NCBI GenBank assembly: GCA_038206475.1
Contig: JBBRAU010000001.1
Coordinates: forward strand, 3,317 to 67,316
Length of the DNA stretch: 64,000 nt
From: Patescibacteria group bacterium
Lineage (GTDB): Bacteria > Patescibacteriota > UBA1384 > JBBRAU01
Direction of reading: 5' to 3'
The translations under genes and the position numbers were made by a program. Shown piece after piece: positions 6,195 to 63,338 of this stretch; position 1 is the stretch's first letter; every line of letters starts with the position of its first letter. The notes under the pieces are model-generated. The model made no database searches, was not told the origin of the DNA, and saw only the letters and a list, made by a program, of their open reading frames with translations.

Positions 6195-6206
6195 TACGCA
6201 CTTAAG

Positions 6207-6237: not shown

Positions 6238-6238
6238 A

Positions 6239-6382: not shown

Positions 6383-6464
6383 CGCCACCTCCAAAAAGAA
6401 CAATGTGGCCCGATCGGACCGGTGACTTAGTGCGAAGATAATTGTAGCAAATCGTCAGGCGCAA

Positions 6465-7442: not shown

Positions 7443-7537
7443 ACCAACATTGTACGGCGTTTTTTAACTGGCCACCAGCACCCAATTGTTGTATAGTGCA
7501 ACGGCTTTGCGCCACCGACCTGAACAGGAGGATAGAC

Positions 7538-9422: not shown

Positions 9423-9428
9423 AACGCC

Positions 9429-39825: not shown

Positions 39826-39913
39826 GTCTTACTCCAATCTTACTATGATTATCTGACGCTTTGGCACTTCTGTCAATACTGACAGTTTGGCCGCTTTGAC
39901 GTATACTTTGGAC

Positions 39914-42900: not shown

Positions 42901-44584
42901 TACCGATATTGTGGCCATGGTGGCGCTCTACCGTCCGGGGCCGATGGAACGTATTCCAACGTACATCAACAGAAAGCACGGCCGCGAGACGGTCACGTAT
43001 TTGCACCCGGATTTGAAAGATATTTTGGAGGATACCTACGGCGTCTTAGTTTACCAAGAACAGGTGCAGGAGATGGCCCAAAAGTTTGCCGGCTTTTCAC
43101 TGGGCGAGGGCTACCTACTGGTCAAAGCGGTCGCCAAAAAAAAGAAAGAGCTGCTGGACGAGCAGCGCATTAAATTCATAGAGGGGGCCAAAAAAATTGG
43201 CAACTCCGAGCAGATGGCGGGACAGCTGTTTGACTTCATCGAGCCGTTTGCCCGCTACGGTTTTAACCGGGCCCACTCGGCCTGCTACGCCTACATTGCT
43301 TACCAAACAGCCTACCTGAAGGCGCACTATCCGGCGGAGTTTATGGCTGCCTGGCTGATTGCCGAGCAACAAAACATCGAAAAGATGACCGTAGCACTTG
43401 AGGAGTGCGAGCGGATGAAATTGCCGATGCTGCCACCGGACATTAACCGCTCCCGCGTTGATTTTGCCGTTGTCCGGGACAAAGCAGCTGAAGGCCGCGA
43501 AGAGATCTTGTTTGGCCTCTCGGCAATCAAGAATGTCGGTATCTCGCCGGCGACAGCCATTGTCGCCGAGCGTGAACAACATGGGCCGTTTGATTCACTA
43601 ACCGACTTATTGCGCCGGCTAGGCACGAAACACCTCAACAAAAAGGTACTAGAAGCTCTGGCACAAGTCGGGGCGCTTGACCGCTTCGGTGAACGCAACG
43701 TCCTAGTCCTGGGGGTTGAGGAGATGACGATCTACATGCATAACGCCGAGAAACAACTTAGCGCCAACATGGACAGCCTGTTCGGTGAGGCGATTGCCGT
43801 CGAGGAGCCAGAGCTCTATCTGCCGCCGCAGCCGCCAGCGGATATTACGGTCCAGTTAGGTTGGGAGAAGGGCTTACTCGGCATTTATCTGTCAGAACAC
43901 CCGGCGACCAGCGTTGCTAAACGGCTGGGCTCGACTATTCAGACTATCGGCCAATTCAGTCTGCGTGACCGTGACAAAATGGTTCGCTTGGCCGGCGTAG
44001 TCGGCAGCGTCAAAAAAATCATCACTAAATCTAATCAAGCCATGGCTTTTGCCAGGTTAGAGGACGCCAGCGGCAACATTGAGGCCGTCGTTTTTCCAAG
44101 CGTGCTCGAGACGACTCATGACTTTTGGCAAACCGAGCGGCTGCTGATTGTGACTGGCCGCTTAAACGACAAAGACGGCTCGCTGAAGCTATTGGTTGAG
44201 TCCGTCATTCCTTATACCGATGAGCTTGACCCGACCAATTTGCCGGAAGTGTCGCAAACGTCGGTCCGACGTCCCCGGCCGAGCGGCCAACCAGACGCAG
44301 TTATGAACCAGGCAGCCGTATCAGCGAGCTCACCCGTCGATGTGAGTCTGCCACCAAGTATCAGTGCGGTGCGACTACAAATGAACGGCAATTTGAGTCG
44401 TCCGCTTTTAGAAGAACTGCGGGGCATTTTAAGCAGCCACAGCGGCAGTGTGCCGATTGTGCTGGCTATCTTGAAGAACAATCAAGAGAAACAGTACCGA
44501 TTGCCAGCCGGCGTTAGCCCAAGTCCACTTTTGAAACGGCAGCTCAGCCGATTGCTTGGCGAGGAAGCGATTGTCCTGCAGTAG
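39914..44584 (+). CDS. dnaE: DNA polymerase III alpha subunit DnaE containing an in-frame 375-aa intein
   Basis: PHP N-terminus (MPEFVHLHVHSQYSLLDG), GVFQIE...SAGMRRYL..., fingers/OB domains. 1556-1565 aa versus ~1180 expected. Confidence 0.9.
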   Translation: MPEFVHLHVHSQYSLLDGMGKIPDLIGRAKELNMPAIALTDHGVMHGSIEFYKAAKKAGIKPIVGCEIYISPRKMTDKEGKVDQKAFHLTLLAKNAVGYKNLIALTSAGHTLGYYYKPRVDKAFLRQHAEGLICLTGCLAAEIPRAIIAGDEAKVDALVKEYFAIFGKDNVYFEIQDHPNIEECQKIVEVVPQLAKKYGRPVVATNDVHYVRAEDAEAQDVLVCISTGKQLADTNRMSYIGTDYSLRTAEDIAAAFKQVPESLETTLHIAEQCNLELELGNTILPHFPVPEGETQDSWFETQCWQGLMARYGEQVPEGHKERLKYELGVIRQMGYAAYFLIVQDFVLWAKSRNIAVGPGRGSAAGSIAAYCLQITDLDPMEHRLLFERFLNPERVSMPDIDMDFEDTRRGEVIGYVTQKYGPDHVSQICTFGTMAAKNAVRDVGRVLGIPYGDVDTIAKLIPEKMNLKQARSATPELEMLIKTDPRISQLYGFAEKLEGNARHTGMHAAGIVISREPLTEYLPVMAATKGEAELVTQYAMGEIEDIGLLKMDFLGLANLSIIQNAVRLIEETHGKKIDIANVPLDDKETYKLLSRAETMGVFQIECLAGDTIVSNTTIKKLHEKQHKKTLESVYVDEGAVHHNRILGVVKSGKKPVYTVIAENGWCIKASAKHKFLTDQGWQELQAIRPGDKVLMKNKAKHVVFNECRSCGQQISGQKEGQSRYCYTCSARHYSNPSKPISRAKITAARLAYYADGHEPWNKGKDVHSDERVRATGQKISRALTGLTLEMKFGPEEAARKRHEQSMRMSGRGNHMFGVKPPHRKGGYRADLGHYVRSNWEADFARILNLHHIPYLYEPHTFPVELPDGQVANYTPDFYVPSEETYYEIKGFMRDIDQAKMDAFETQYPHKKLVLINTTTFAEFAMTYRSLVAWECPKIPEQQFAFQTVQAIRPAGIEETYDISMEAPGNNFVANGFVVHNSAGMRRYLAELKPTKFTDIVAMVALYRPGPMERIPTYINRKHGRETVTYLHPDLKDILEDTYGVLVYQEQVQEMAQKFAGFSLGEGYLLVKAVAKKKKELLDEQRIKFIEGAKKIGNSEQMAGQLFDFIEPFARYGFNRAHSACYAYIAYQTAYLKAHYPAEFMAAWLIAEQQNIEKMTVALEECERMKLPMLPPDINRSRVDFAVVRDKAAEGREEILFGLSAIKNVGISPATAIVAEREQHGPFDSLTDLLRRLGTKHLNKKVLEALAQVGALDRFGERNVLVLGVEEMTIYMHNAEKQLSANMDSLFGEAIAVEEPELYLPPQPPADITVQLGWEKGLLGIYLSEHPATSVAKRLGSTIQTIGQFSLRDRDKMVRLAGVVGSVKKIITKSNQAMAFARLEDASGNIEAVVFPSVLETTHDFWQTERLLIVTGRLNDKDGSLKLLVESVIPYTDELDPTNLPEVSQTSVRRPRPSGQPDAVMNQAAVSASSPVDVSLPPSISAVRLQMNGNLSRPLLEELRGILSSHSGSVPIVLAILKNNQEKQYRLPAGVSPSPLLKRQLSRLLGEEAIVLQ
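41729..42853 (+). mobile_element. Intein in dnaE (HINT domain plus inserted zinc-ribbon and PD-(D/E)xK-like endonuclease)
   Basis: Block A CLAGDTIV after FQIE. Block B IKASAKHKFLT. Block F/G NNFVANGFVVHN followed by S+1. Exteins rejoin as FQIE|SAGMRRYLAELKP, matching E. coli FQLE|SRGMKDLIKRL. Confidence 0.8.
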
Positions 44585-46619: not shown

Positions 46620-48533
46620 CTACTGGGCCGGTGGTTGATCGGCTGGCTGGTCGGCCGGGACATCGGTTTTGGTGCCAACCAGGAACTTGGCTGGCCAAGG
46701 CTTGTAGTGACTACTGAAAACCTGGCGGTTAATTTCCTTGCCGTCGCGGCGAACAATGTAAGTGGCCGTCGTAGTCGCACCCGGATGAGCGTGATCGGTC
46801 TGCTTGGTTACGCCAACCGGCAGAGTGTCGGTATCGGTGTAGATTGAGTCAGGCGGCGGTGCTGTCGACAGAGTGGATGGGCCGACAATTTGGCTCTGGC
46901 GGCCATCTTTAGTGCCGTAAATTTCAAAGCTGACGTTGTTGCCGCTAACGTAGCCTTGAACCAAAATAGCGCCCGGTGAATCATTCTTGAACTTAAAGTC
47001 TGGCTTCGGGCTGTAGACCGTGGCGTCCAGACCAGGGCCGACCCCGACCTCGTAGTAGGGCACGCGGTAGGAGTGGTTGGTGCGAGCCGTAATCGGCAAA
47101 CCGGCGTTCATGGCCGCCCGGAAAAGCGTGGTCGACACCTGGCAGAGACCGCCACCAAACTCGGGGATGGTGGCATTTTCTTTAATCACCAACTCAGGCA
47201 GGTAGCCGGTAGAGCCGTCGATATTGCCGAGCAGTTTGATGGTCGAAAATTCCTCACCCGGCTTGATGACAATGCCCGTCAAAAAGGAGACCCCGGTTTT
47301 AATGTTGTGGATGCGGTTTTGCGGGCTACCGACAAAACTGGTTGTGGCTGTGCCAATCAGCTCTTTGATGCCTAAGTTGGCGACACCGGCAGCCGAAATA
47401 TCTGAGTCTACCTTTTTGCTGGCTAAGGTCAGGCTCGTGACCGACGCCTGGCCGGAGGCGCGAGCCAACAGCTCTTTACTGACCTGGTCAGCAGCTGCGG
47501 AGCGGTCAGTGACAACGCCAGCCTTGCTGTCAGACAGCACCGAAACTTGGCCGTTATCAATTTTGAGGCGGGCGCCTATGGCCTCGACGTCGTAACTGGT
47601 GGCCAAGTCGTCAATTAAACCGTGCAACTTATCTTGGTCAACGGCCGGATTGAGCTGGCCACGCTCAATCTGAGCGGAGATGAGCGGCTCTAGTTGGCTT
47701 GGCTTTAAGGTAGTCGCACCGCCGGGGAAAACCAGTTTCAAGGGGGCTTTGAGCATCAGGGTGGCGGACGTCACGGCTGCCTGCCCCTGGTCGGCAATTT
47801 CGGTCGGCTTGACTGTCATTGGCTCAACTTTGACTTGGGCCATCGAAAAAGCCAGGAAGCGCTGTTTAATAACCGCGGCTAGGGCGGCTTGGTCTATCCG
47901 TTGGCCTTCTTTGCCCGGCACAAAACTAACTGTGCCGCCGTTGGCGGTCAAGGTTGGTTGTTGCTCCGGCTGGTCAACTTCTTTGGCCGCATCAGACACC
48001 CAGGTAGTTAAGCGGTCTTCGTTCAAGGTGGCAACGGGCGATACACTTTGGCTGACAAACAGGCTGCTGATTAGCGGCCAAACGCCTGTTAGACCAGAGC
48101 CTTTGTGGCCGTAGGCCAAAAGTTTGTCGGCCGTGGCGAGCGCATCAAGACTAAAGCCGAGTTCATCAGACGACAGCGTCTTGTCTTTGATGGCGACGGC
48201 AACCGCCAGCTTCTTCGTCTTGGCCTGTTCGGTCAGCTGCTGCATTTTGGCCACAACCTCTGGTTTGGCCAGGTTGGCAAAGGAGGTGCTGCCAATACGT
48301 ACCCCAGGCAGTACACGGTTAGCCATGGCAATGGCGTAGACATCAAGCAACATAACAATAGCCAACGCTGCTAGCACGCCAATCAAAACGAGGCGGGCGC
48401 GCCGTTTGCGGCGGCCACGCTCTGGCTTTGTCTGGATTGACTCGCCGGTGGTTTGGTCGACCGGATCAGCGCCAATTTGAATGTTTTTTGCCTCGTCTTT
48501 GGCGCCTACCGCGTTGATCGCGTTTTTCTTCAC
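46620..48533 (-). CDS. VanW-domain protein with N-terminal TM
   Basis: VanW core (NHSYRVPYYEVGVGPGLDATV...) plus a G5/PG-binding-like N-terminal region. Confidence 0.8.
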   Translation of the reverse strand: MKKNAINAVGAKDEAKNIQIGADPVDQTTGESIQTKPERGRRKRRARLVLIGVLAALAIVMLLDVYAIAMANRVLPGVRIGSTSFANLAKPEVVAKMQQLTEQAKTKKLAVAVAIKDKTLSSDELGFSLDALATADKLLAYGHKGSGLTGVWPLISSLFVSQSVSPVATLNEDRLTTWVSDAAKEVDQPEQQPTLTANGGTVSFVPGKEGQRIDQAALAAVIKQRFLAFSMAQVKVEPMTVKPTEIADQGQAAVTSATLMLKAPLKLVFPGGATTLKPSQLEPLISAQIERGQLNPAVDQDKLHGLIDDLATSYDVEAIGARLKIDNGQVSVLSDSKAGVVTDRSAAADQVSKELLARASGQASVTSLTLASKKVDSDISAAGVANLGIKELIGTATTSFVGSPQNRIHNIKTGVSFLTGIVIKPGEEFSTIKLLGNIDGSTGYLPELVIKENATIPEFGGGLCQVSTTLFRAAMNAGLPITARTNHSYRVPYYEVGVGPGLDATVYSPKPDFKFKNDSPGAILVQGYVSGNNVSFEIYGTKDGRQSQIVGPSTLSTAPPPDSIYTDTDTLPVGVTKQTDHAHPGATTTATYIVRRDGKEINRQVFSSHYKPWPAKFLVGTKTDVPADQPADQPPAQ

Positions 48534-48572: not shown

Positions 48573-49121
48573 CTACGAATTGGCAAACTTGGCTTTGAAG
48601 GCGGCCATCGCTTCAGTAATCTGCGCCTTGGCTTCGGCCGCATCGCCAAAGCCGGTGACCGTAACATGTTTGCCCGGCTCAAGCAGCTTATATGTTTCCA
48701 TGAAGGTTTTAATTTCGGCTTTGGTGTGGGCGTTAACATCGGCAATGTCTTGCACGTGCGCCCAGCGCGGATCTTTGATTGGCACGCAAATCACTTTGTT
48801 GTCTTTTTCGCCACTGTCTTCCATATGCAACAGTCCAACCGGCCGGCAGGCGATAACGCAGCCCGGGAAAGTTGGATAGGTCACGAGCACGATGGCGTCC
48901 AGCAGATCTTCATCTTGCGTGTTCCAGGTTTGCGGGATGAGGCCGTAGTCGGTCGGATAAAAGTTAGGGCCGGTTAAGACACGGTCTAATGCAAAGTAGT
49001 CGCCGTGCTCGCGGAACTCAATTTTATTGCTGGAGCCTTTGGTAATTTCGATAAAAACGTTGACTTCGTTGGGCACATCCTCACCCGCTGGCAGACGGAA
49101 GACAATCGATGACTCTGTCAT
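48573..49121 (-). CDS. ppa: Inorganic pyrophosphatase
   Basis: Family I PPase motifs (DLLDAIVLV, HMEDSGEKDNKV). Confidence 0.9.
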   Translation of the reverse strand: MTESSIVFRLPAGEDVPNEVNVFIEITKGSSNKIEFREHGDYFALDRVLTGPNFYPTDYGLIPQTWNTQDEDLLDAIVLVTYPTFPGCVIACRPVGLLHMEDSGEKDNKVICVPIKDPRWAHVQDIADVNAHTKAEIKTFMETYKLLEPGKHVTVTGFGDAAEAKAQITEAMAAFKAKFANS

Positions 49122-50287
49122 GGCGATCCTTTCTTGTGTTTCTTGAAATATTCAACATAAAGATTTGCGGTCTGTTTGGCCGCCTTCTCCCAACAGTAGC
49201 CGGCTTGCTGCTGTTTGCCAAGCTGGCTGAGTTTAGCCGCTAGCGCCTCGTCCTCAACCAGCCTCGTTAAGTGCACGGCTAACTCTTCGGGATGCGTCGG
49301 GTCAAAGTAAAGCGCGGCTTCGCCAAGCACTTCCGGCAAACAGGAAGCATTTGAGCTAATGACCGGCAGACCGTAGCGCATCGCCTCAAGCGGCGGCAGG
49401 CCAAATCCCTCCTTAAAGGAGGGGAAAATAAAGGCCGTGGCGTTCAAATAAAGTGCTTGCAGCGCCGCCTCTGAGACAAATCCGGGGCGAATAACTTCTG
49501 ATTCCGTTAAGCCGGTGCGTTCAAGCGCTTGGTCTATCCACGTGGCTTTCGAATCAATTTTTCCAGCCAAAACGAGGCGGTAGATGCTGCCTGAGGGATA
49601 CTGCTCGCGGAAACTGGCAAACCCTTCAATTAAGCCGTCAACATTTTTATGGATACGCTGCTGGCCAACGTAGAGAAAATACGGCTCAGCCACCCCGGCC
49701 TCGGTCAGCTCTTTGGGCAGTTTTGGCTTGGCCGTGGGCATAGGCGGCTCGCGCAACGACTGCGATGACTCATAAATGACCGTAATTTTGGCCGGATCAG
49801 CCCGATAGTAGGCCAACAAGTCGGCTTCGGTCGCCTCAGAAACGGCAATTATTTTTTGGCTGCGGCGAACAGCGTCAGCCATGACGCGATGGTAGAGGAA
49901 ACGCTTGAGGAAGCTGCTTGCGGGTGTTGGATACTCATCAAGCACCAGGTCAGGAATGGTGACGATAAACGGCACTTTCAGGCCGAGCGGGTGGTTGAAG
50001 TGTAAAAAGTGCACCAGATCTGGCTGCAGCTTCAGTATGCGGCGGCGAAAATCAGTTTGCTCGGCGCGCGAGTACCACGGCTCTGGGGCAACTTCAGCCG
50101 TCTGGTTTGGCTGCAGGTACGGCGTGAGTGCTTTCTCCTGGCCAGGCGGAATCAACACAGTCACTTGGTAGTCGCCGAGCAGCGGCAGTAAACATGCGAG
50201 CAAATCAAAGGTCAGGCGGCCGTTGCCGGAGGACTCAGGTTTCAAAAAGCGAGCATCAATAACTAGGTGCGGCAATGCTTTAATCAT
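49118..50287 (-). CDS. Glycosyltransferase family 4 (GT-B)
   Basis: EX7E region FKEGFGLPPLEAMRYGLPVI. Confidence 0.85.
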   Translation of the reverse strand: MIKALPHLVIDARFLKPESSGNGRLTFDLLACLLPLLGDYQVTVLIPPGQEKALTPYLQPNQTAEVAPEPWYSRAEQTDFRRRILKLQPDLVHFLHFNHPLGLKVPFIVTIPDLVLDEYPTPASSFLKRFLYHRVMADAVRRSQKIIAVSEATEADLLAYYRADPAKITVIYESSQSLREPPMPTAKPKLPKELTEAGVAEPYFLYVGQQRIHKNVDGLIEGFASFREQYPSGSIYRLVLAGKIDSKATWIDQALERTGLTESEVIRPGFVSEAALQALYLNATAFIFPSFKEGFGLPPLEAMRYGLPVISSNASCLPEVLGEAALYFDPTHPEELAVHLTRLVEDEALAAKLSQLGKQQQAGYCWEKAAKQTANLYVEYFKKHKKGSP

Positions 50288-51452
50288 GTTTTTCCGGTTT
50301 TAACCACGGCCAAAAGGCATCGGCCATAATGAGTAAGCTAAGTGGTGCCAAACTGGCCTGCCAGAAGGTGGTGTCAACGGCGCCATGAATAAGAATGGCT
50401 AGCAGGGCGGCCAATGTCCAGACCGATCGCGGTCGCTTGAGTGCGGCTAAGAGCGCCAACCAAAATAGCACTGTGAGGCCAATTACACCAAATAGACCGG
50501 CGTTGAACCAGCTGGCCAAAAAGAGGTTGTGCGGGTGGAGAGCGTAGGGGACGACGTAGCGCCCGAGTTGCGGGTCGCCTTGGACCAGGTTGGCGTAGGC
50601 GGCCTGAAAGCCACCGTCGGACAGACCAAATAGTGCCACTCTGGGCTGCTTCAGCAGCTGCAGGGCGCCTTGCCAGATGGGGAAGCGGCTGTCGGCTTGG
50701 GTCATGGCTAACCCAACCAGCAGCAGCAAGCCGAGCGCGGTGAATAGGCGCTTCTTTGGATAGCGCATAAGTAACCAGGCAGACAGTGGCGCCAAAGCCA
50801 TGGCCAGCAGACCACCGTCAGAACGGCTGGCCAGTACTGTGAGCAGCGTAGCAGTGCCAATAAACCAGCGCACGGGTTGCTTGAAGTGCCCGCCGAGCAG
50901 CAACAGCCCCAGCGGCAGCATAAACATGGCCAACGTGTTAGGCGAGGTAAAGGGTCCAATCGCCCTCAACGGATGAAGGTATTGGCTGAGGTCCGCGGCG
51001 ACTTGGCCCGGCCACAGCAGATACCAGCCGAGTAGCGAGCCGGCGGCGGCCACTGCAGTCAGGCAAAAACCAATCAGTAAGCCACCTGCCGCCAATGTTT
51101 TTTGCCGTGATGTGCCGGCCGCAAGCAGGCAGGCGAAGACGGCTGGCAGGATAATCCAGCCGATCAGAATGCCGCCGGCATGGCTTTGTGAGCTGGCTCC
51201 GGGCACGGCCAGCAGTAGGCCGGCCAAAAGTAGGCCAAACCCAGACAACAGGCGTTGGCGCAGGTGCAGCGGTTTATCGGCTGATTGCAGGTATGGCAAG
51301 CTAAGCAGTAGGGCAATTGAGATCAGGGGCAGCGCCACCCCGGGCAGTTTCCAGAGCGCTAGGGGCATGAGCGCTGTGGCCAAGGCAATAAGAAAATTCA
51401 CGCCGGCTCCGACTGGCGAATATGGGCCCAAATGAAGCCGATCATCACCCAA
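50280..51452 (-). CDS. Wzy_C-family membrane protein (O-antigen ligase/polymerase/O-OTase-like), paralog 1
   Basis: 10-12 TM helices. ASRSDGG loop motif. Confidence 0.65.
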   Translation of the reverse strand: MGDDRLHLGPYSPVGAGVNFLIALATALMPLALWKLPGVALPLISIALLLSLPYLQSADKPLHLRQRLLSGFGLLLAGLLLAVPGASSQSHAGGILIGWIILPAVFACLLAAGTSRQKTLAAGGLLIGFCLTAVAAAGSLLGWYLLWPGQVAADLSQYLHPLRAIGPFTSPNTLAMFMLPLGLLLLGGHFKQPVRWFIGTATLLTVLASRSDGGLLAMALAPLSAWLLMRYPKKRLFTALGLLLLVGLAMTQADSRFPIWQGALQLLKQPRVALFGLSDGGFQAAYANLVQGDPQLGRYVVPYALHPHNLFLASWFNAGLFGVIGLTVLFWLALLAALKRPRSVWTLAALLAILIHGAVDTTFWQASLAPLSLLIMADAFWPWLKPEKHD

Positions 51453-52663
51453 ATCGGCAGAATGTAGAGCGTCGAGAAGAACATATATTGCACAATGGTC
51501 GCCATCAGGCTGAATAACAGCCAGAGCGCCGTGCGGTCCAGTTTTGGCCGTGCCAGCGAACGAGCCAAACCGGCCGCTAAGCTCACAAACAGACCAAGAC
51601 CAAGTACGAGACCAACAATACCCAGCTCGGCAAAAAGCTCTAGGTAGAGGTTGTTGACGATCGGCTGGCCAGCCTGGCTTGCCTGCTGCGGTAAAGTGCT
51701 GGCGTTACCAAAGTTGCCCATACCAACACCAGATAGTGGCACTGTTTGACCAAGCCGAAGCGCTTCGCTCCAGTTGTCCAGCCGGCCGACGGTTGAATTA
51801 GAACTAGGGTCGTGTAAATCGCCGATCAACAGTTGCTCCTCGGCCCGTGGCAAGTTGAGTGCCGTTTTGGCTGACAAGTGGCTGAGGCCAACGTACAAGC
51901 CGGCGGCCAAAAGCACCGCCGCAACCGTGGCTAACCAAAGCCTAGTAGTCAATTGGCGCTCCTGGCGAAACCAGAGTAGCGTAGAGACTATAACCAGTCC
52001 GACAACCAAGCCGAGGTTAGCACTGCGGCTGATGGGCAAGAAAAAGCTGACCAGGGCTAAGCCAAAGGTCGTCAGCCACAACAGGCGTCTCTTTGGCTGC
52101 TGCTCAACTAAAATGAGCGGCACCGGCAGTAGGAAGCAGAGGAAATTGCCAAAGTAGAGCGGCTCGAGCGAAAGGGCGTGCGGGCGTGGGAAACCAAGCA
52201 TGGATTTAGCATACACCGGCGAGAGTAGCGTCCACTGATTGCTCAGGCCGGCGGCGCCGGCAATGAACTGGTAGAAGGCAATAAGTGCTACACCAAGTGC
52301 GACGTAGCCAAGCACGAGCTTGGCTTTTGGCCAGACGAGTTTATCATGCAAAGCAATGCGAACTGCCATGGCGACCGCAACGGTAAACGCCAGCGCTAAG
52401 GCGGTGTGCAGCGCCCTGGCAGCACTGCCTGCCCAATAGACCGACAGCAGCGCCCAAAGCACCAGAATAACTGCGATGCGCTCGCTTGACAGCAGCTTTT
52501 GCCAATGCAACTGCTTCGGCGCATTTATGATCGCGGCAATTACCAGTATCAGTGCCACGGCGGTCGACAGACGGAGATCAAAGCCGCTCTGCTGTAGCAC
52601 CGGCCAGCGTTCAAACGGCAGGACGGCAAGCAACAGGATCAACACACTAGTCATGACGGCCAA
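51398..52663 (-). CDS. Wzy_C-family membrane protein, paralog 2
   Basis: ISRSANLG motif; polytopic. Confidence 0.65.
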   Translation of the reverse strand: MAVMTSVLILLLAVLPFERWPVLQQSGFDLRLSTAVALILVIAAIINAPKQLHWQKLLSSERIAVILVLWALLSVYWAGSAARALHTALALAFTVAVAMAVRIALHDKLVWPKAKLVLGYVALGVALIAFYQFIAGAAGLSNQWTLLSPVYAKSMLGFPRPHALSLEPLYFGNFLCFLLPVPLILVEQQPKRRLLWLTTFGLALVSFFLPISRSANLGLVVGLVIVSTLLWFRQERQLTTRLWLATVAAVLLAAGLYVGLSHLSAKTALNLPRAEEQLLIGDLHDPSSNSTVGRLDNWSEALRLGQTVPLSGVGMGNFGNASTLPQQASQAGQPIVNNLYLELFAELGIVGLVLGLGLFVSLAAGLARSLARPKLDRTALWLLFSLMATIVQYMFFSTLYILPIWVMIGFIWAHIRQSEPA

Positions 52664-54119
52664 ACCCTAAATTCTGGCGGTCCATCACGCCGATGGCAAA
52701 AAAGAGAAACAGCAAAAGCATCAGCCAGAGGCCCGCACCTCCGAGGCCAATCAGGAGCTGCCATTTGAAACTGCTGCCGGCAAACCAACTTACGGAGCGA
52801 TCAAACGGCCGAATAACCAGCAGGAGCGGCAGTATGGCAGCGGCGAGAATAGCCAGCACCTGGGCCAGCGGCAGTCGCGGCTTGGCTTTTTCTGGCAACA
52901 GTCGCCACTTCCAAACCAGGAGGACACCTTCCGTCAGGCCGGTTAGGAGTGCCGGCACGATCAGTGGTGCCAGCGGAATGAGTAACACATTCAGCGCCGC
53001 ATTCAAGACGGTGACAATAATCAGCGGCCGGATCGCCCGCCGCGTCATGTCGGTAGCAATAATAATATTCGTCATGTGCTGCGACAGGAACAACACCAAG
53101 AGCACCAAGGCCAAAATTCGCAGCGTCAAGGTGGCGGCTAAAAACTGCGGCCCGGCCAAGATGAGCAAAATGTACGGTGCAAACAGGTAGACCAGACTAG
53201 CCGTGGCGACGCCGCCGATAAGCGAGAGCATGCTGGTAGCGGTTAGAGCCCGGCCGAGGGTGGCATCTGGCTTGCGCCAGCGGGCCGCGAGCACCGGAAT
53301 GATGTTGCCGGCCAGAATGCCGGGTATGACTAAGACCAGGTCAAACATGCGGTAGGCGCCGCCGTAGAGACCCATCTCTACACTGCGGCTGCCGCGCATG
53401 AGCGACAGGATGACGCTGTCAATGCGCGAATGGGCCAGCGCAAAACCGGCCAGAAGCGCCATCGGCCAGAGACCGGCCCAGTGTTTGCGCCAGAGGTCGC
53501 TGTTGAAGCGGAAACGAATGGGCAAAAATTGCCGGATAATCAGCCATGAAATTAGGAATGAGGCGATACCGCCGACAAAGGCGGCCCAAAAAATCGTTTG
53601 CAGGCTTTGGCCGGAGGCGACCGCCCACCAGGTAGCGGCCAACGTGACCGCTTTGCCGAGCGTTTCCGGAATGACGATCAGCTCCGCTCGGAAACGTTGT
53701 TGGAAGTAGGCAGAGATAGTTTGGAAGAGTAGAGCAACGCCGGCAATGGCGGCGCCGAGCACGATGCCAAACTTGGTTGCCAGGCTATAGGTGGTCGTCG
53801 GCACGACCGTCACGATTGCCACAGCGACCAGAGCAATGACGGCGGTCAGGAGTAGCCGAAAGCCGAGAGCGTTGCTGAGTAGTTCCTCAGTCTGGCGGCG
53901 GTCTGTGGTCATTTCGCGCACCAAGTAGAGGTAGAGGCCCAAATCACCGACCGCACCAAACATCTGAATATAAACGAAAGCTGTGTTGTACTCGCCGACA
54001 CCGGAGACACCAAGGTAACGCGAAATAATGCGAAACAGCACTGCCGAAAGCAGCACGCTCAAAAAACGCCCCATAATCTGGATACCGCTATTTTTGGTAA
54101 TTTGCTGTCCGAGGCTCAT
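52647..54119 (-). CDS. MOP-superfamily polysaccharide flippase (Wzx-like)
   Basis: 490 aa, ~14 TM helices. Confidence 0.75.
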   Translation of the reverse strand: MSLGQQITKNSGIQIMGRFLSVLLSAVLFRIISRYLGVSGVGEYNTAFVYIQMFGAVGDLGLYLYLVREMTTDRRQTEELLSNALGFRLLLTAVIALVAVAIVTVVPTTTYSLATKFGIVLGAAIAGVALLFQTISAYFQQRFRAELIVIPETLGKAVTLAATWWAVASGQSLQTIFWAAFVGGIASFLISWLIIRQFLPIRFRFNSDLWRKHWAGLWPMALLAGFALAHSRIDSVILSLMRGSRSVEMGLYGGAYRMFDLVLVIPGILAGNIIPVLAARWRKPDATLGRALTATSMLSLIGGVATASLVYLFAPYILLILAGPQFLAATLTLRILALVLLVLFLSQHMTNIIIATDMTRRAIRPLIIVTVLNAALNVLLIPLAPLIVPALLTGLTEGVLLVWKWRLLPEKAKPRLPLAQVLAILAAAILPLLLVIRPFDRSVSWFAGSSFKWQLLIGLGGAGLWLMLLLFLFFAIGVMDRQNLGFGRHD

Positions 54120-55372
54120 GTTCTCTTCTCACCATATCTGGCCGAATTCGGCAAAGCCAGCAGCAGCGCCGACAGCCCAACAAGCCACAAAGCGGCGGTT
54201 TTATTGTCAGAGAATGGCTGCAGAAAGAGATTTGCAACCAAGAAGGCGCTCCAGGGAACCAGCAGGAAGCGAGTTTGATTTGTTTTTGCTAGATGGACCA
54301 ACAGCACCACGAGTAGTCCGAGCAGACTAATCAAGCCGAACAGACCTATTTCGATCAGTATCGCCAGGTAGAAATTTTCCGGCAACAAACGAACATAGGG
54401 CGTGTAGGTTGCCGTACCAAGCCCCAGGCCGAGCAGCTTATCTGGCCATGGCAGGCTGCTCCACAGGCGGAGAACATCCTGAATGGTCGCGGCATGCAGG
54501 CTCGTTGAGGCACCATGCAGCAGCACCTCGCGCCACGAGCTCAGGTAGAACAGAACAAGCAGCCAGGAAGCAGTGAGCCAGCCAGCAACAATACCGACGA
54601 GCGCAGCCAGCCTAGGGCGCCAGGCAGCTTTGTCGAGCACAATTGCGGTCAGTGCACCGACCAGGGTCGCTAGTATGGCACTGCGGCTGCCGGTCAAAGC
54701 AATTGCGGCACCGACCAGGGCGGCAATATACAAATCGCGCTTCGGCTGGCGTTGCAGGCATACCAACCCGAGCAAACCGACCAGCAGGCCAAGCTGATTA
54801 CTGCCGATTGCCAGTGTCAGTTGCGGAACGCGGCCAGCGAAAAACCAGCCGTACCCAAATTGCAGCGACGGTGAAATGAGATGCCAGCGCTCCAGATAGC
54901 CGGGACCAAAGGTGAATTCCGCCGCCACCAGTGTGAGGACGATGCCCAGCAGCCAGCTGGTCGTTTTGTGGTAGTCAAATTGATTCGCTTGTTTCTCCGG
55001 AGGGAGAACAAGAAAACTGAAAGCGAGCAGCCACACGTAGCCGCCGCGAAAACCAATCACCAACTGGCGTAAACTGAGCTGGTGGCTGATACTGCTGACG
55101 GTAATCATGGTCAAGATCGGTATCAGCCACCACATCAGCTGCCGCGTCTCTAGACTGAGCTTGTTTTGGCCATCTGGCCAAAGAATTAACGCTACGGCAA
55201 TGAGCGCGAGAAGCCACAGCGTAATTTCGGGCAATGAGACGATCAAAAATGCCACCCTCGGCGACAACAGTGCGTGGCTGGCCAGCATAGCCTCAACAAG
55301 ACGATTGACGAAGTAACCGCCAATAATCAACAACCAAATCAGGTTGAGACGGGTACGCAAAATAGCGATCAC
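54116..55372 (-). CDS. Wzy_C-family membrane protein, paralog 3
   Basis: TGSRSAILATL motif; polytopic. Confidence 0.65.
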   Translation of the reverse strand: MIAILRTRLNLIWLLIIGGYFVNRLVEAMLASHALLSPRVAFLIVSLPEITLWLLALIAVALILWPDGQNKLSLETRQLMWWLIPILTMITVSSISHQLSLRQLVIGFRGGYVWLLAFSFLVLPPEKQANQFDYHKTTSWLLGIVLTLVAAEFTFGPGYLERWHLISPSLQFGYGWFFAGRVPQLTLAIGSNQLGLLVGLLGLVCLQRQPKRDLYIAALVGAAIALTGSRSAILATLVGALTAIVLDKAAWRPRLAALVGIVAGWLTASWLLVLFYLSSWREVLLHGASTSLHAATIQDVLRLWSSLPWPDKLLGLGLGTATYTPYVRLLPENFYLAILIEIGLFGLISLLGLLVVLLVHLAKTNQTRFLLVPWSAFLVANLFLQPFSDNKTAALWLVGLSALLLALPNSARYGEKRT

Positions 55373-56458
55373 TTAACGGAGACCTGCTAGAAACACGTCG
55401 GCGCTGTGCTGGATAGTGTATAATTTACTGTCTTGCCAGGCAGCTTGACGCCTGGCGGCGTACTCATTGCTGTCGCCGAGTGCTTGCATCACCGCTTCAG
55501 CCAAACCGAGCGGTGTATTCACTTTAGCCAGCCAGCCCGTTCGGCCATCTTTGACGGAGTCGCGGTAGCCGGCCACATTGTAGGTGACCGCCGGTGTGCC
55601 GAGAGCATTGGCCTCGGTGACAATTAAGCCCCAACCTTCTTTGTGGGAGGCCGAGACCAAGAGAGAGGCGGCTTGCATTAGCTGATTGCGCTTGGATAGC
55701 GGCACCGCGCCGTGGAAAGTGACGCGCTGCGCCAAACCAAGCGCTTCGGCCTGCGCTTTCAGCTGTGAGACATATACGTCTCCACCGCGACCAACCACGT
55801 CAAAGTGCGCCTCAGGAAGGTATTGCATCATCTTCAACAGGTGCGGAATGCGTTTCATCGGATGATGGCGACCAACAAAGATCAGTCGCCACTCTGGTTT
55901 TTTGGCGGGCAGGCTAGGCAGCGGCGTCACGTCAACCGCCTCAGGCACGATTGTGATCGCTTTACGCGCAATGCCACGCGCCACTAAATCTTCTTTCGTC
56001 GAAGCTGAAACGGTCAGAAACCGCGTACGGCGATAGCACCAAAAAAGCAACGGCTCAACGGTGTAGAGCAGCAGATTGACCGGAAAGCAGGCGATTAAAA
56101 ACCAGAGGCTGCGCGGCACTTCGTGAATGAAAGCCCGGCGCAACGACGCCGGCATATACAGTGGTGTAAAAAAAGGGATGCCGTGAATTTGGTCAACGAC
56201 GCGATCAAAATTGCGGGCCTGGCCATCGGCGCGCCACCAGCGCCAGGCCTGGTAGTGTACCGTCAACGCTGAGCCACACCGAATAATGGTGTAGCCGTCT
56301 CGTTGCTCCTCAGGCTGGGCGCCTGGGAAACTGGCCGTAAACAACACAACGCTATGGCCGCGCCGAACAAGCTCGACCATAATCGCCTCGGTAATGACTT
56401 CCGCCCCGCCGGCCGCCGGATTTAGCCGGTCTCGCCAGTTGAGAAACAGGAGGTTCAT
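55373..56458 (-). CDS. Glycosyltransferase family 4
   Basis: HKEGWGLIVTEANALGTPAV. Confidence 0.85.
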   Translation of the reverse strand: MNLLFLNWRDRLNPAAGGAEVITEAIMVELVRRGHSVVLFTASFPGAQPEEQRDGYTIIRCGSALTVHYQAWRWWRADGQARNFDRVVDQIHGIPFFTPLYMPASLRRAFIHEVPRSLWFLIACFPVNLLLYTVEPLLFWCYRRTRFLTVSASTKEDLVARGIARKAITIVPEAVDVTPLPSLPAKKPEWRLIFVGRHHPMKRIPHLLKMMQYLPEAHFDVVGRGGDVYVSQLKAQAEALGLAQRVTFHGAVPLSKRNQLMQAASLLVSASHKEGWGLIVTEANALGTPAVTYNVAGYRDSVKDGRTGWLAKVNTPLGLAEAVMQALGDSNEYAARRQAAWQDSKLYTIQHSADVFLAGLR

Positions 56459-57222
56459 GGGCTGATTTGGTTCAATAACCGGCGGTGTGGCCGGTCATAA
56501 TAACGCACTAGGTAGCGACGGTAGAAAATGGCGGCGGTATCTTGACCGGCCTGGATAATCGACTTCAGCTTAACGCCTGAGGTGACGGCATTGAAGTCTA
56601 AGTTGACCGGCGCCTCAAAGATGCGACTATAACCAAGCCGCTTGGCAATCACCAAGAGCTCTAGATCAAACATATACTGCTTAACAAGCGCCCGCGGCAT
56701 CACATCATCAAGCACCTTTTTGCGGAATACTTTGAGGCCAACTTGGGTATCTTTGACATTCAAATGGAACAAAAGCCAGATGAGCGCTTGGGCGAAGAAG
56801 GAGATGACTCGTCTCTGCCTCGGATAGTGCACATGTGAGGCTGGATGACGCTTTGAACCAATAACAATATCGGCCTCAAAGATTTGATAGAGCTGGACAA
56901 AACGGCCAACGTGGTCCGGGCTGTAATCGCCGCCAGCGTCAAACAGCACCACAACCTCGCCTTTCGCGCGCGCGGCGCCATAGTAGAAGGCGTAACCTTT
57001 GCCATGATTCGGTTGGTAGCTGAGTATCGTGAGGCGTGGATCGGTGATCTTCTTGGCCTCGGCCTCGGTTTCGTCCGGACTGCCGTCAACGACCACAATA
57101 ACCTCAAACGAGTAGGCGTACGTATCGAGTTCCGGCAACAGTAAATTGAGCGTATGGCGAATATTCTTCGCCTCACCATAGGCCGGTATGACGACACTCA
57201 GATACGGTTTTTTGTCAGGCAT
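56455..57222 (-). CDS. Glycosyltransferase family 2 (DPM1/GtrB-like polyprenyl-phosphate glycosyltransferase)
   Basis: LSVVIPAYGEAKNI, DDGSPD-like VVVDGSPDET, DxD. Confidence 0.85.
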   Translation of the reverse strand: MPDKKPYLSVVIPAYGEAKNIRHTLNLLLPELDTYAYSFEVIVVVDGSPDETEAEAKKITDPRLTILSYQPNHGKGYAFYYGAARAKGEVVVLFDAGGDYSPDHVGRFVQLYQIFEADIVIGSKRHPASHVHYPRQRRVISFFAQALIWLLFHLNVKDTQVGLKVFRKKVLDDVMPRALVKQYMFDLELLVIAKRLGYSRIFEAPVNLDFNAVTSGVKLKSIIQAGQDTAAIFYRRYLVRYYDRPHRRLLNQISP

Positions 57223-57258
57223 ATTCTCTCCGCCAAACAGCTGAAAGTGTGCGCAGAA

Positions 57259-58512
57259 TCAGGCTTGGCTTCTCTTGGTGATTCCCCCGTATGCTAGCAG
57301 GAATAAGGTGGCAAGCGCGAGCGCGCCGGTTATACCACTAATCAAACCGACCAGGCTGCCGTGGCTAAACATCACGGTCAAAATATAGACCAGAAAACCG
57401 AGTAACAGCCAAGGTATGACCATCGTCCGGCGCATGGCCAAGAAATACTGGGCCAAGAGAAATAGCATTTCATAGCAGAGCACCATCAGGCCGGTGAGCG
57501 GCAGCAGCGACGCCTGACTAACGTAGGCTTGGCCAAACAAGAGCTTGAGCAGAGGCTCTGGGTAGCGCCAGAAGATAGTGAGCACAATCAAGCCGCCGAC
57601 AAGTAGTAGGCAGGCGGTACCAAACAGCAGCGGCAGCGAACGGCCGCCGCGAATCCGCTCAGCTGTAATTAGTGGAAACATGACCGATATGACAGGACTC
57701 GAAAAATAGAACAGGTACTTAGCCACGGTTGAGACAGCGGCGTACTGGCCGGCCAATGCAGGCAGGTAGTGCTTAACAAACAGCACGTCTGCGCTTAGAT
57801 AGAAACTGGTCACAAATAATATAACCGCCACCGTAGCGTATTCCGTCCAAGGGATGTGTAGTTTCAGTGCCTTCGGCGTATCAGAGGGCTGAAAATGGAG
57901 CGGCAAGAAGGAGAAGATCAGCGCCAGCGCCATACCAACAATAACGGCGGCAATTGCGCCGAAGAGGGCGTAGCCGAGCGCAATCGAAACGATACCGGCC
58001 AACAGGCGGACAATGCCCTCTGAAGTGGTTGACCAAGCAAACAGCCAGAAACGTTGGCTGCCTTGCAAAGCGCCGCGGAAGACCGGCAACGCCAAGCCGA
58101 GGAGTACCGTTGGTGCCAGGGCCATAACTGGTAGGGCGGATGGCAAGTTTAAGTAACCGGCAAACCACGGAGCGGCCACAACGATCAGAGCGGTTAGGCC
58201 GAGGCCAATCGGCCACAGCTTCTGCAGCAGCCATAAGCTCAGTTCGCGGATACCGGCTAGACCATGTTCTTGCATGATTTCGCCGGCTCGCCGGTTAGCC
58301 ACCAGTTGAATGACCGAAGCGGGGATAGTAAAGAGGATGAGCAGATTGAGTAGCGCCACCAGCTCGCCGTATGGCTCGCTGCCCAGATGGTTGGCCATCA
58401 GGCGCTGAAAGAGATAGTTGGCGACTGCACCAATGAGAGTACCAAAAACGACGACCGCTCCAGAGGTAAGCAGCGTCCGCGGCAGGCCAAATAGTCGGCT
58501 ATCATCTGACAT
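57259..58512 (-). CDS. Polysaccharide biosynthesis/flippase-like polytopic membrane protein (Wzx/MurJ-like); start set at MSDDSRLFG
   Basis: ~12-14 TM helices. The track N-terminal 53 aa are not protein-like. Confidence 0.65.
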   Translation of the reverse strand: MSDDSRLFGLPRTLLTSGAVVVFGTLIGAVANYLFQRLMANHLGSEPYGELVALLNLLILFTIPASVIQLVANRRAGEIMQEHGLAGIRELSLWLLQKLWPIGLGLTALIVVAAPWFAGYLNLPSALPVMALAPTVLLGLALPVFRGALQGSQRFWLFAWSTTSEGIVRLLAGIVSIALGYALFGAIAAVIVGMALALIFSFLPLHFQPSDTPKALKLHIPWTEYATVAVILFVTSFYLSADVLFVKHYLPALAGQYAAVSTVAKYLFYFSSPVISVMFPLITAERIRGGRSLPLLFGTACLLLVGGLIVLTIFWRYPEPLLKLLFGQAYVSQASLLPLTGLMVLCYEMLFLLAQYFLAMRRTMVIPWLLLGFLVYILTVMFSHGSLVGLISGITGALALATLFLLAYGGITKRSQA

Positions 58513-59966: not shown

Positions 59967-60051
59967 GGAGGGTAGTGCGAGTGGCTCGCAACTGGTCTTG
60001 AAAACCAGACCGGCCGCAAGGCTGAAGGTTCGATTCCTTTACCCTCCGCCA
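59967..60051 (+). tRNA. tRNA-Ser (UGA)
   Basis: Manual fold. Acceptor ggagggu/acccucc, anticodon loop cuUGAaa, long variable arm, G73-CCA. Begins 4 nt after the HNH stop. Confidence 0.85.
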
Positions 60052-62591: not shown

Positions 62592-63302
62592 TTAACAGCC
62601 ACGTTCTGGATCTAGGGAAAAATCACAATTGGCCGGTGTGTCGGATCCCGTTGTTTGTCCACCAGTGGAGGTGGCGGGCTGAGTATTAGTTTGCGATGCA
62701 TTACACCCCTCTGGATGAAGTTCAACGTCACAAGAAGTCCCGCTGCCGCTGCCTGTTGTTGTACCGGGGCAATTAGTAGTGCCTTCCGGACACGCACTGG
62801 TCCCGGTGTTGGTTGTAGTATCAGCTGTTGGCAGGGAGGGCGCACTGGTGGGGCTGGCGGATGACTTGGGGGGGGTTGCGTGAGGCGTGGGGCTGGCGCT
62901 CGGCTGGCTTGTCGCTGATCGGCTCGAGCCGTTACCGCAGACCTTTGTATCAACATCGCAAAATACCGGTGGTGCGGTTGAAGTCGAGCCGCTCTGCAAG
63001 AAGGTTGAGTTGGGGTTAAGCAAGTCGTTGATGACAAAATTCACCAGTACCCAAGCCAGGGCAATGATAATAATACCGATTATGGCGTTTAGGATTGTTT
63101 TTTTGGCGTTTTCGGCGCCATCACCGGTGCCCGCGGTTAAGTATTGGAAACCGGCATACAAGAAATAGACAAAGGCAACAATGCCGGCGACACCAAGGAA
63201 AATGTTGATAAAATGGTCAAGCAGTGAAAACAAATCACCCTGGTAAGGGTTGATTTGTTTTATATCACTGACCGACGCGGCCAAGGCTACGCCAGAGAAC
63301 AA
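62592..63302 (-). CDS. TrbC/VirB2-like pilin paralog with S/T/P-rich, Cys-containing C-terminal tail (TTG start)
   Basis: Core ...LGVAGIVAFVYFLYAGFQYLTAGTGDG...ILNAIIGIIIIALAWVLV is paralogous to the upstream gene. No N-terminal signal peptide. 100-aa S/T-rich tail. Confidence 0.5.
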   Translation of the reverse strand: MFSGVALAASVSDIKQINPYQGDLFSLLDHFINIFLGVAGIVAFVYFLYAGFQYLTAGTGDGAENAKKTILNAIIGIIIIALAWVLVNFVINDLLNPNSTFLQSGSTSTAPPVFCDVDTKVCGNGSSRSATSQPSASPTPHATPPKSSASPTSAPSLPTADTTTNTGTSACPEGTTNCPGTTTGSGSGTSCDVELHPEGCNASQTNTQPATSTGGQTTGSDTPANCDFSLDPERGC

Positions 63303-63338
63303 TTTTACCTTCTCTACTATTGTCTGGGGAGCGCCAGC

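Follow-up and report, generated by a model that had tools for sequence, protein, structure and literature searches.

The window analysed here, i.e. the whole 64-kb stretch of DNA, holds an eight-gene block on the minus strand with the order GT4, Wzy_C-A, Wzy_C-B, Wzx, Wzy_C-C, GT4, GT2 and a second Wzx-family flippase (Table 1). ORF and domain matches confirmed the gene block and its domain content as given in the first-pass annotation. The genes form a translationally coupled operon; the gene junctions from Wzx2 through ppa are either abutting or overlap by 4–8 nt, with an overlap of 4 nt between GT4b and GT2 and a GTGA start/stop overlap at the Wzy_C-A/Wzy_C-B junction. The start of Wzy_C-A is likely the GTG at 51401.

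Table 1. Genes of the glycan operon and other features of the window, with positions counted from the first letter of the window
Feature	Position	Strand	Description
PNPT	13638–14735		WecA/MraY family; similar scores for WecA and MraY
VanW/PG_binding_4/G5 protein	46620..48533	-	Cell-wall-associated protein; Pfam matches; conserved downstream neighbour
Inorganic pyrophosphatase (ppa)	48573..49121	-	PF00719, 168.7 bits; same direction as GT4a, 4 nt overlap
GT4a	49118..50287	-	389 aa; most conserved glycosyltransferase of the cluster; PF00534, 104.9 bits
Wzy_C-A	50280..51401 (ORF to 51452)	-	WaaL-type membrane glycosyltransferase, 373 aa; canonical R210/R256/H308
Wzy_C-B	51398..52654 (ORF to 52663)	-	WaaL-fold membrane glycosyltransferase, 418 aa from M4; R210/R291/N334
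Wzx1	52647..54119	-	MOP/Wzx flippase, 490 aa; PF01943, 66.9 bits
Wzy_C-C	54116..55372	-	Divergent WaaL-fold membrane glycosyltransferase, 418 aa; R230/H293/E332
GT4b	55373..56458	-	Cytoplasmic GT-B glycosyltransferase, 361 aa; PF00534, 110.6 bits, and PF13439
GT2	56455..57222	-	255 aa; resembles polyprenyl-phosphate sugar synthases; PF00535, 89 bits
Wzx2	57259..58512	-	Divergent flippase of the MOP/Wzx family, 417 aa; heads the operon; annotated P0035, ATG start at 58512
TrbC-like pilin	62592–63302		PF18895 match

By a WaaL-like fold or full-length profile homology, the three Wzy_C proteins belong to the Wzy_C/WaaL-fold (GT-C_B) superfamily. Their scores against PF04932 (GA 31.7 bits) are 32.0 bits for Wzy_C-A, 61.1 bits for Wzy_C-B and 26.6 bits, below GA, for Wzy_C-C. 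Pairwise BLASTP aligned Wzy_C-A and Wzy_C-B with 28% identity across 116 aa only and returned no match of Wzy_C-C to either. The description as three paralogs in a row therefore holds in part: the proteins are paralogs in an ancient sense and not close kin, and A and B are adjacent whereas C is set apart from them by Wzx1. The NCBIfam scan of the three proteins gave no ligase-level assignment; RfaL matched Wzy_C-A weakly (E 9e-6, 25 bits where the cut-off is 277). For Wzy_C-B, the model TIGR04370 gave E 0.17.

Active-site positions were read against R191, R265 and H313 of CmWaaL. The Wzy_C-A family carries the signature Arg-Arg-His, the His being kept in 52 of the 56 ORFs of the family, and its profile matches WaaL (7tpg, E 7.4e-11), where all three residues align. 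In the structural comparisons of the Wzy_C proteins, RodA and FtsW rank next. Conversely, the WaaL constellation is incomplete in Wzy_C-B (N334) and in Wzy_C-C (H293 and E332), and the respective family signatures are Arg-Arg-Asn (Asn in 85/86 homologs) and Arg-His-Glu (Glu in 35/35 homologs). In PglS, a WaaL-fold O-OTase, the corresponding His has been proposed as the catalytic base, H324A serves as an inactive control and a role in pyrophosphate binding has been proposed for the Arg residues (PMC12800693). Both B and C are devoid of this His, which PglS requires. As the residues at the WaaL catalytic positions differ between the three families and are conserved within each, A, B and C probably do different jobs, although the missing catalytic His is no proof of a polymerase. 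To this extent the earlier proposal of several acceptor specificities survives, namely in the probable functional distinction of the three enzymes; its pilin acceptor is unsupported.

The arrangement extends well beyond the window. A second Wzy_C-family gene, typically an A-type ORF, lies directly adjacent to and downstream of B in 43 of the 73 CPR loci with enough flank, at least three such genes are found in 9/73, and B-A-C trios occur in 8 CPR loci. Three distantly related ligase/polymerase-type membrane enzymes hence recur across CPR, and tandem Wzy_C-family genes, which had been regarded as unusual, are the norm in these loci. An independent contig from one relative (L082) shows the identical eight-gene order, followed by VanW immediately after GT4a, so that the gene clustering is not due to chance. 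In at least 13 CPR loci, GT4a is followed by a VanW ortholog on its downstream side. The inorganic pyrophosphatase does not belong to the conserved cluster: ppa had no match in the related loci and is absent between GT4a and VanW in L082. Likewise, the position of C next to the GT2/Wzx2 branch is a gene order of the window and L082 only; the other trio loci have C directly after A.

Both genes previously called Wzx flippases could be assigned as such. Wzx1 matches PF01943 directly and the NCBIfam model Wzx_EPS under the model's cut-off (E 4e-12); its orthologs are found in 51 of 80 CPR loci. Wzx2 gave no direct Pfam, NCBIfam or PDB-profile match and is assigned via its homologs (25–57% identity), as PF01943 is found in 8 of the 10 non-identical ones, and via alignment of its family profile to Wzx1 (hhalign; probability 91.9, E 7e-7, 346 columns). 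For GT2, the best solved relatives are the dolichol-P-mannose synthase DPMS (5mlz; E 2e-11, residues 8–213), GtrB (5ekp) and ArnC, in agreement with the original view of a polyprenyl-phosphate glycosyltransferase-like enzyme, an activity predicted from sequence likeness; the NCBIfam matches to PpgS (E 7e-14) and EpsD are both far under the cut-offs. Many CPR loci carry an ortholog of GT4a (E 1e-50 to 1e-69), and VanW usually follows it closely downstream; the solved structures related to GT4a are those of retaining GT-B enzymes of a generic kind, e.g. MshA and GlgA.

The best 80 genomic relatives of Wzy_C-B are all Patescibacteria-type (CPR) MAGs, and CPR have been reported to lack lipid A/LPS genes (PMC5220378). 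A search of the 64-kb window for lpx and kds genes found none. With close relatives confined to CPR and no lpx or kds genes in the window, it is very unlikely that the cluster serves LPS, and the first-pass annotation was right to look for a role other than LPS. The organism most likely has neither an outer membrane nor LPS; as the DNA examined amounts to 64 kb of the source genome, the absence of LPS is judged from the relatives. Carrier-lipid genes are present in the same window (PNPT, PAP2, UppP and UptA), with no unambiguous initiating phosphoglycosyltransferase among its genes.

Observed here are the genes present, their folds and homologies, the signatures of the active sites, the synteny and the taxonomic setting. 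They are best explained by a conserved CPR operon that assembles a surface glycan on a polyprenyl carrier by a Wzx/Wzy-type route, in a monoderm that most likely lacks LPS and with a division of roles between B, A and C. We give this reading about an even chance. The cytoplasmic GT4 enzymes would build a lipid-linked repeat unit, which Wzx1 would flip across the membrane, and the three anciently diverged WaaL-fold enzymes would carry out the outer-face steps. From its Arg-Arg-Asn signature, Wzy_C-B, which is always present, is the probable polymerase. Wzy_C-A, with its WaaL/PglL/TacL-type Arg-Arg-His signature and its usual position directly downstream of B, is the most likely candidate for the terminal ligase. 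It would hand the completed chain over from undecaprenyl-PP to an acceptor other than LPS, with a membrane glycolipid (as for TacL) favoured over a protein. We infer this polymerase/ligase split as well as the identities of donor and acceptor; the glycolipid is a guess, since NCBIfam and solved-structure comparison revealed no specific similarity of GT4a to glycolipid synthases. Wzy_C-C is predicted to be a divergent third transferase. Together with GT4b, GT2 and Wzx2 at the head of the operon it may constitute a second branch, for a second polymer or linkage or for side-chain decoration.

Alternatively, all three proteins could be Wzy-type polymerases making different linkages or polymers, with two flippases for two or three glycans and the attachment enzymes encoded elsewhere. 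Sequence divergence among Wzy proteins is notorious, and many of them are placed in PF04932; to our knowledge there is no universal sequence signature of a Wzy O-unit polymerase. The operon, with two MOP flippases and at least three cytoplasmic glycosyltransferases, would suit such a system, as would the missing ligase-level assignments. The context of a polytopic enzyme beside Wzx and repeat-unit glycosyltransferases, characteristic of Wzy polymerases, is indeed found here; it is compatible with this alternative but does not discriminate. Against it, the full ligase/OTase-type Arg-Arg-His is retained in nearly all A orthologs, and A, B and C are conserved orthologous groups with a fixed B-A(-C) order in many CPR lineages, which argues for complementary steps rather than serotype-like alternatives. 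Moreover, no Wzz/PCP co-polymerase domain was present in any scanned ORF of the window, and no LCP ligase was seen in the window; a Wzz/PCP partner may be encoded elsewhere or be dispensable. These absences, together with that of an unambiguous initiating phosphoglycosyltransferase, weigh on the preferred reading as well. We therefore regard a set of three polymerases as unlikely.

The first-pass annotation had instead suggested that at least one Wzy_C protein is a PglL/PilO-like O-OTase acting on the S/T/P-rich VirB2-like pilin or on S-layer proteins, with one acceptor per paralog. The pilin is real and lies 4 kb off, and its tail of 141 aa contains 47.5% S+T+P compared to 16% in the housekeeping proteins of the window. 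Further points in favour are the Arg-Arg-His of Wzy_C-A, common to PglL and PglS (PMC12800693), a match of the B-family profile to a solved "Oligosaccharyltransferase" (9rmk, E 4.5e-9), and the fact that an LPS acceptor is not expected in CPR (PMC5220378). Still, for B this match is outranked by WaaL, and the A profile gave no OTase match at all. PF04932 was the sole family reported by Pfam for the three proteins (E ≤ 0.01), with neither PglL_A nor Wzy_C_2 detected, and the NCBIfam TfpM model matched Wzy_C-A only (E 0.014; 14.5 bits, where the cut-off is 600). All three proteins are of WaaL/TacL size (373–418 aa vs. 610 aa for the solved OTase), and two of them lack the PglS-essential His, so that the proposed PglL identity could not be upheld. 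Genetic linkage to the acceptor pilin gene is typical of PilO, TfpO and TfpM. Here, however, homologs of the PF18895 pilin occur within ±10 kb of the cluster in just one of the 83 related loci, and T2SSE ATPases lie near it in 3, whereas VanW is the recurrent neighbour; the link to the pilin thus finds no support. Pilin O-glycosylation by the cluster is possible but unsupported, and the O-OTase reading as a whole is improbable. As the three proteins do not all classify cleanly as Wzy polymerases and the window, searched for LPS genes, holds no full LPS pathway, a protein acceptor for Wzy_C-A is conceivable, if less likely than a glycolipid. A classical diderm LPS O-antigen locus (Wzy plus WaaL), or SEDS-like peptidoglycan polymerases tied to VanW, is barely credible: the Pfam name "O-antigen ligase", the weak RfaL match, the structural matches to RodA and FtsW and the downstream VanW cell-wall protein point that way, but the RfaL score is far under the cut-off, the best 80 relatives are all CPR, which lack lipid A genes (PMC5220378), and the operon carries Wzx flippases and GT4/GT2 enzymes with no mur or PBP genes.

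In the preferred reading, the locus is a tightly packed cell-surface sugar-polymer operon in a member of the poorly understood CPR, and several known systems can be compared to it. WaaL of Cupriavidus metallidurans (7TPG/7TPJ; GT-C_B fold) shares ~17% sequence identity; its acceptor is lipid A-core, which is not expected in CPR, and unlike WaaL, B and C carry Asn and Glu, respectively, in place of the catalytic His, with His at the second Arg in C. PglL, PilO, PglS and TfpM have the superfamily and the Arg/His active site in common with Wzy_C-A, whereas the proteins described here are much shorter than the solved OTase and no PglL-specific C-terminal domain was found in them. GT2 beside the flippase Wzx2, upstream of the polytopic outer-face transferase Wzy_C-C, is reminiscent of three-component extracytoplasmic glycosylation (GtrA/GtrB/GtrC; CsbB/GtcA/YfhO; ArnC/ArnT). 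In contrast to these systems, the flippase is MOP-type rather than GtrA-type, and the predicted outer-face enzyme has the WaaL (GT-C_B) fold rather than that of GtrC/YfhO/ArnT (GT-C_A). Among cultivated Patescibacteria, the Saccharibacterium Southlakia epibionticum ML1 has an operon (SEML1_0079–0083) of a sugar transferase, GT4, a WaaL/Wzy-fold protein, GT2 and Wzx, read by its authors as EPS machinery only, and a separate "O-antigen ligase family" gene (SEML1_0863/0864) (PMC10633639). According to Tn-seq, the WaaL/Wzy-fold, GT2, Wzx and "O-antigen ligase family" genes are essential or fitness-conferring (PMC10633639 supplement). The likeness considered here is one of gene content, and one Wzy-like gene in that operon compares to two or three in tandem in the CPR loci. 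In Streptococcus pneumoniae, the lipoteichoic acid ligase TacL is a Wzy_C-domain enzyme that moves an Und-PP-linked polymer onto a membrane glycolipid (PMC5727136). Wzy_C-A would fit the TacL type in domain, size and monoderm-type lineage, the three features compared. Choline and teichoic-acid genes are absent here, and the tandem Wzy_C genes of the CPR loci are a further difference. With its monoderm setting, a Wzy_C-domain enzyme of ~400 aa, a MOP flippase (TacF) and a separate repeat-unit polymerase (PMC5727136), the TacL pathway nevertheless offers, by analogy, the closest functional parallel to Wzy_C-A, Wzy_C-B and Wzx1.

The glycan-assembly block consists of eight minus-strand ORFs between 49118 and 58512, encoding two MOP/Wzx-family flippases (Wzx1 and Wzx2), the glycosyltransferases GT4a, GT4b and GT2, and three WaaL-fold membrane glycosyltransferases (Wzy_C-A, -B and -C, hereafter A, B and C). 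Neighbouring genes mostly overlap by 4–8 nt or abut, the exception being a 36-nt gap between Wzx2 and GT2, and A most plausibly starts at a GTG that overlaps the B stop codon (GTGA). The GT4, GT2, Polysacc_synt (Wzx1) and Wzy_C domains were all confirmed by Pfam. The Wzy_C scores were 32.0, 61.1 and 26.6 bits for A, B and C, which, at a gathering score of 31.7, places A barely above and C under the threshold. HMMs of all three families revealed no fourth Wzy_C-family member in the window. A promoter/terminator scan was uninformative, returning 9 promoter-like sites vs. 7.9 expected and 37 terminator-like sites vs. 20.9 expected, with the terminator excess mostly inside coding sequence.

Features of the window, with the operon genes in order of transcription
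Feature	Position	Strand	Length (aa)	Remark
Wzx2	57259-58512	−	417	first; database product is this form, start at 58512
GT2	56455-57222	−	255	second
GT4b	55373-56458	−	361	third
Wzy_C-C	54116-55372	−	418	fourth
Wzx1	52647-54119	−	490	fifth
Wzy_C-B	51398-52654	−	418	sixth
Wzy_C-A	50280-51401/51452	−	373-390	seventh
GT4a	49118-50287	−	389	eighth
Inorganic pyrophosphatase	48573-49121			continues the run beyond GT4a
VanW/PG_binding_4/G5 protein	46620-48533			continues the run
dUTPase-family protein, then SHMT				further along the same run, past the VanW protein
PAP2 phosphatase, BacA/UppP, DedA-family protein	8088-10040	+		three consecutive genes; Und-P recycling trio
PNPT, polyprenyl-phosphate N-acetylhexosamine-1-P transferase family (PF00953)	13638-14735	+		outside any mur/dcw context
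Two PF18895 (VirB2-like T4SS) pilin genes	62592-63794	−		tandem
GT4 glycosyltransferase and PIG-L-family de-N-acetylase	32069-33912	−		overlapping genes
Ribosomal protein L19	35951-36772	−	273	L19 domain at residues 32-140 only, hence a C-terminal extension of ~130 aa
DnaE (DNA polymerase III alpha)	39887-44584	+	1565	intein (PF14890 Intein_splicing, residues 624-989) inside finger region
tRNA	59967-60051	+		long-arm tRNA-Ser
XerC/D-type tyrosine recombinase	6465-7442	−		ordinary feature
PIN-domain protein	39147-39584	−		ordinary feature

Pairwise BLASTP aligned A with B at 28% identity over 116 aa and gave no match between C and either of them. Pairwise similarity is thus near-absent, and the three are not recent duplicates. 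Their homology is established by profile alignments, structural models and matches to WaaL. The C-family profile aligned with the B family at an hhalign probability of 99.4 (E 6e-22) and with the A family at 99.1 (E 7e-19), the alignments spanning 365–386 columns. AlphaFold2 models were confident (pLDDT 85.7 for B and C; pTM 0.88 and 0.89, respectively), and WaaL was matched by the A-family profile at E 7e-11 and by the B-family profile at E 1.5e-14; the latter also matched the solved “Oligosaccharyltransferase” 9rmk (E 4.5e-9). Profiles were needed, as a PDB search with the single sequence of B gave nothing meaningful. PDB profile searches with the C family and with Wzx2 returned no match, and both were placed by fold comparison and hhalign instead. 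NCBIfam was unable to separate WaaL, Wzy and PglL for the three proteins, every match being far under cut-off. Wzx2 had no direct match in Pfam or NCBIfam, and the label “Wzx-like” is reasonable given that PF01943 was found in 8/10 non-identical homologs and that its family profile aligned with Wzx1 (hhalign probability 91.9, E 7e-7). Among solved proteins, the best relatives of GT2 are without exception polyprenyl-phosphate glycosyltransferases (DPMS of P. furiosus, E 2e-11; GtrB; ArnC), in agreement with its initial description as polyprenyl-P glycosyltransferase-like.

Relatives of B were sought in one genome per species. The best 80 of 191 relatives, at ≤34% identity, all derive from Patescibacteria/CPR-type MAGs (labelled Berkelbacteria, Saccharibacteria or Patescibacteria group, plus a few evidently mislabelled bins), and the window itself carries CPR hallmarks such as the tandem pilins. 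The related loci were searched with the proteins of the window and the family HMMs. Where ≥1.3 kb of sequence was available downstream of B (73 loci), a second Wzy_C-family gene, nearly always A-type and on the same strand, lies directly adjacent to B in 43; a second copy occurs anywhere in the locus in 57/73, and three or more copies in 9/73. B-A-C trios were found in L008, L014, L015, L036, L040, L054, L062 and L083, and the closest relative found, L082 (Wzx2 57% identical), reproduces the order of the window, Wzx2-GT2-GT4-C-Wzx-B-A-GT4, with VanW directly after. The arrangement is thus no oddity of the source genome; it is a conserved CPR feature made up of three orthologous groups, and the first-pass annotation, which had called three paralogs in a row unusual for a plain polymerase/ligase pair, is to be revised in that three paralogs are typical of this lineage. 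Two architectures recur. In “duo” loci (e.g. L003–L011) Wzx-GT4(n)-B-A are all co-directional. In “trio” loci (L008, L036, L040, L054, L062, L083) B-A-C are divergent from Wzx, sometimes from GT2 too, and cytoplasmic GTs are fewer. Immediately upstream of the trio in L083, a 479-aa ORF without Pfam match (6096–7535, +) may be a fourth polytopic component.

The active sites were compared with the WaaL reference 7tpg (R191, R265, H313) by counting positions along HMMER alignments for A and B, and via C-family profile alignments with the A and B families for C. The equivalent residues are R210, R256 and H308 in the A family (His in 52/56 ORFs), R210, R291 and N334 in the B family (Asn in 85/86 ORFs), and R230, H293 and E332 in the C family (Glu in 26/26 and 9/9). 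The motifs at the His position, PHN, VNN and SE(N/S), are visible in the family alignments too, which show the predicted active-site residues to be fixed separately within each of the three families. Such divergence is consistent with the proposal that the multiple copies reflect different specificities. For PglS, an O-OTase with the WaaL fold, the corresponding His has been proposed as the catalytic base, with H324A used as a dead control, and the arginines are proposed to hold the Und-PP pyrophosphate (PMC12800693). Judged by these positions, the canonical ligase/OTase site is confined to A among the three. The C family is rare, with 45 matches at E ≤ 1e-3 and three at ≤ 1e-30 among 1.84 billion representative proteins. 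With Asn or Glu in place of the His proposed as catalytic base in the WaaL/PglL family, the B and C variants amount to natural experiments on that residue, and they bear on efforts to engineer such enzymes to make glycoconjugates.

In many loci the array is followed by GT4a orthologs (E down to 1e-69) and by a VanW protein, VanW being present in at least 13. The analysis shows that many CPR lineages share an operon of Wzx and multiple WaaL-fold enzymes with linkage to a VanW wall protein. A carrier-lipid system is present in the window as well, comprising the PNPT and the Und-P recycling trio. The PNPT scored about equally against WecA (70 bits) and MraY (63 bits), and could act either as the transferase that initiates glycan synthesis or as MraY. 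The DedA-family protein matches the UptA Und-P transporter model at E 1.7e-43, albeit under cut-off. Wzz/PCP, LCP, lpx and kds genes were not found within the 64-kb window. Outside the operon, the GT4/PIG-L pair resembles BshA/BshB or MshA/MshB, under cut-offs, and may take part in making a glycolipid or thiol that contains GlcN. The tRNA matched the Rfam tRNA-Sec model (RF01852) at 53.3 bits vs. a GA of 47; ARAGORN reads it as tRNA-Ser, anticodon TGA, and the Sec identity was rejected on these grounds.

Taken together, the gene set very probably represents a Wzx/Wzy-dependent pathway. Cytoplasmic GTs would assemble a lipid-linked unit, a MOP flippase would export it, and the WaaL-fold enzymes would process it at the outer face. 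Another reading, proposed initially, is that the Wzy_C proteins are PglL-like O-OTases acting on the nearby pilins. The C-terminal tail of the first pilin (141 aa, 47.5% S+T+P vs. 16% background, 8 cysteines) is, by its composition, a plausible glycosylation substrate in principle. Conserved pilin linkage is absent, homologs of the two pilins occurring within ±10 kb in 1/83 loci (L076) and a T2SSE ATPase in 3/83. CPR genomes reportedly often carry such VirB2-like pilin arrays (bioRxiv 10.1101/2025.01.22.634366), and in a genome of ~1 Mb the 4-kb distance to the pilin array is not evidence of function. There was no PglL-specific domain or model match, profile searches rank WaaL above the solved OTase, and B and C are without the essential His. 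For A a PglL-like role is conceivable, if improbable, and has no specific support. An LPS role was rejected, as was a SEDS-like or peptidoglycan role; the initial expectation that LPS is not the product is consistent with the lack of lpx/kds genes in the 64-kb window and with CPR genomes reportedly devoid of lipid A/LPS genes, their envelope structure and biogenesis being described as unclear (PMC5220378).

As an LPS acceptor is not expected, the closest functional precedent for the Wzx/Wzy-dependent assignment is the pneumococcal teichoic-acid pathway, where attachment of an Und-PP-linked polymer to a glycolipid of the membrane involves a repeat-unit polymerase, TacF as flippase and the Wzy_C-domain protein TacL as ligase (PMC5727136). 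B would be the polymerase, being universal in these loci and carrying both arginines without the His, and A the terminal ligase, given its full R/R/H site, its WaaL/TacL-like size and its position almost always right after B. C, distinctive in having His at the position of the second Arg and Glu at that of the catalytic His, would belong to a second branch together with Wzx2, GT2 (DPMS/GtrB-like) and GT4b. These individual roles are tentative, ranging from doubtful to an even chance at best; we infer how the roles are divided, what the acceptor is and which donor C uses.

Experimental context is provided by S. epibionticum ML1, which has an operon of sugar transferase-GT4-WaaL/Wzy-fold-GT2-Wzx and a separate “O-antigen ligase family” gene; in co-culture these genes are either essential or linked to growth defects, and the authors interpreted them as EPS machinery (PMC10633639). 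For related genes, fitness effects are already on record in a Saccharibacterium amenable to genetics (PMC10633639). Tandem Wzy_C genes were not described for CPR in the literature searched, and the conserved B-A(-C) array, the family-fixed Asn and Glu where the catalytic His would be, and the VanW linkage all appear undescribed there. CPR bacteria live attached to host cells, which makes surface chemistry central to their biology, and the operon supplies concrete, testable candidates for the enzymes polymerising and anchoring the main CPR surface glycan. An improbable, more far-reaching combination would have the B-A(-C) array as core machinery of the main Patescibacteria envelope glycoconjugate, a membrane-anchored lipoglycan replacing LPS/LTA in epibionts, and C (Arg-His-Glu) as a new GT-C_B catalytic class, decorating the polymer outside the cell with a polyprenyl-monophosphate sugar made by the adjacent GT2 and flipped by Wzx2. 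If true, C would be the WaaL-fold counterpart of GtrC or YfhO. Each of the proteins extends a known superfamily by a new, divergent member, and pathways of this type are known. The conserved array is a useful point of entry to the poorly understood CPR envelope and not a new kind of system.
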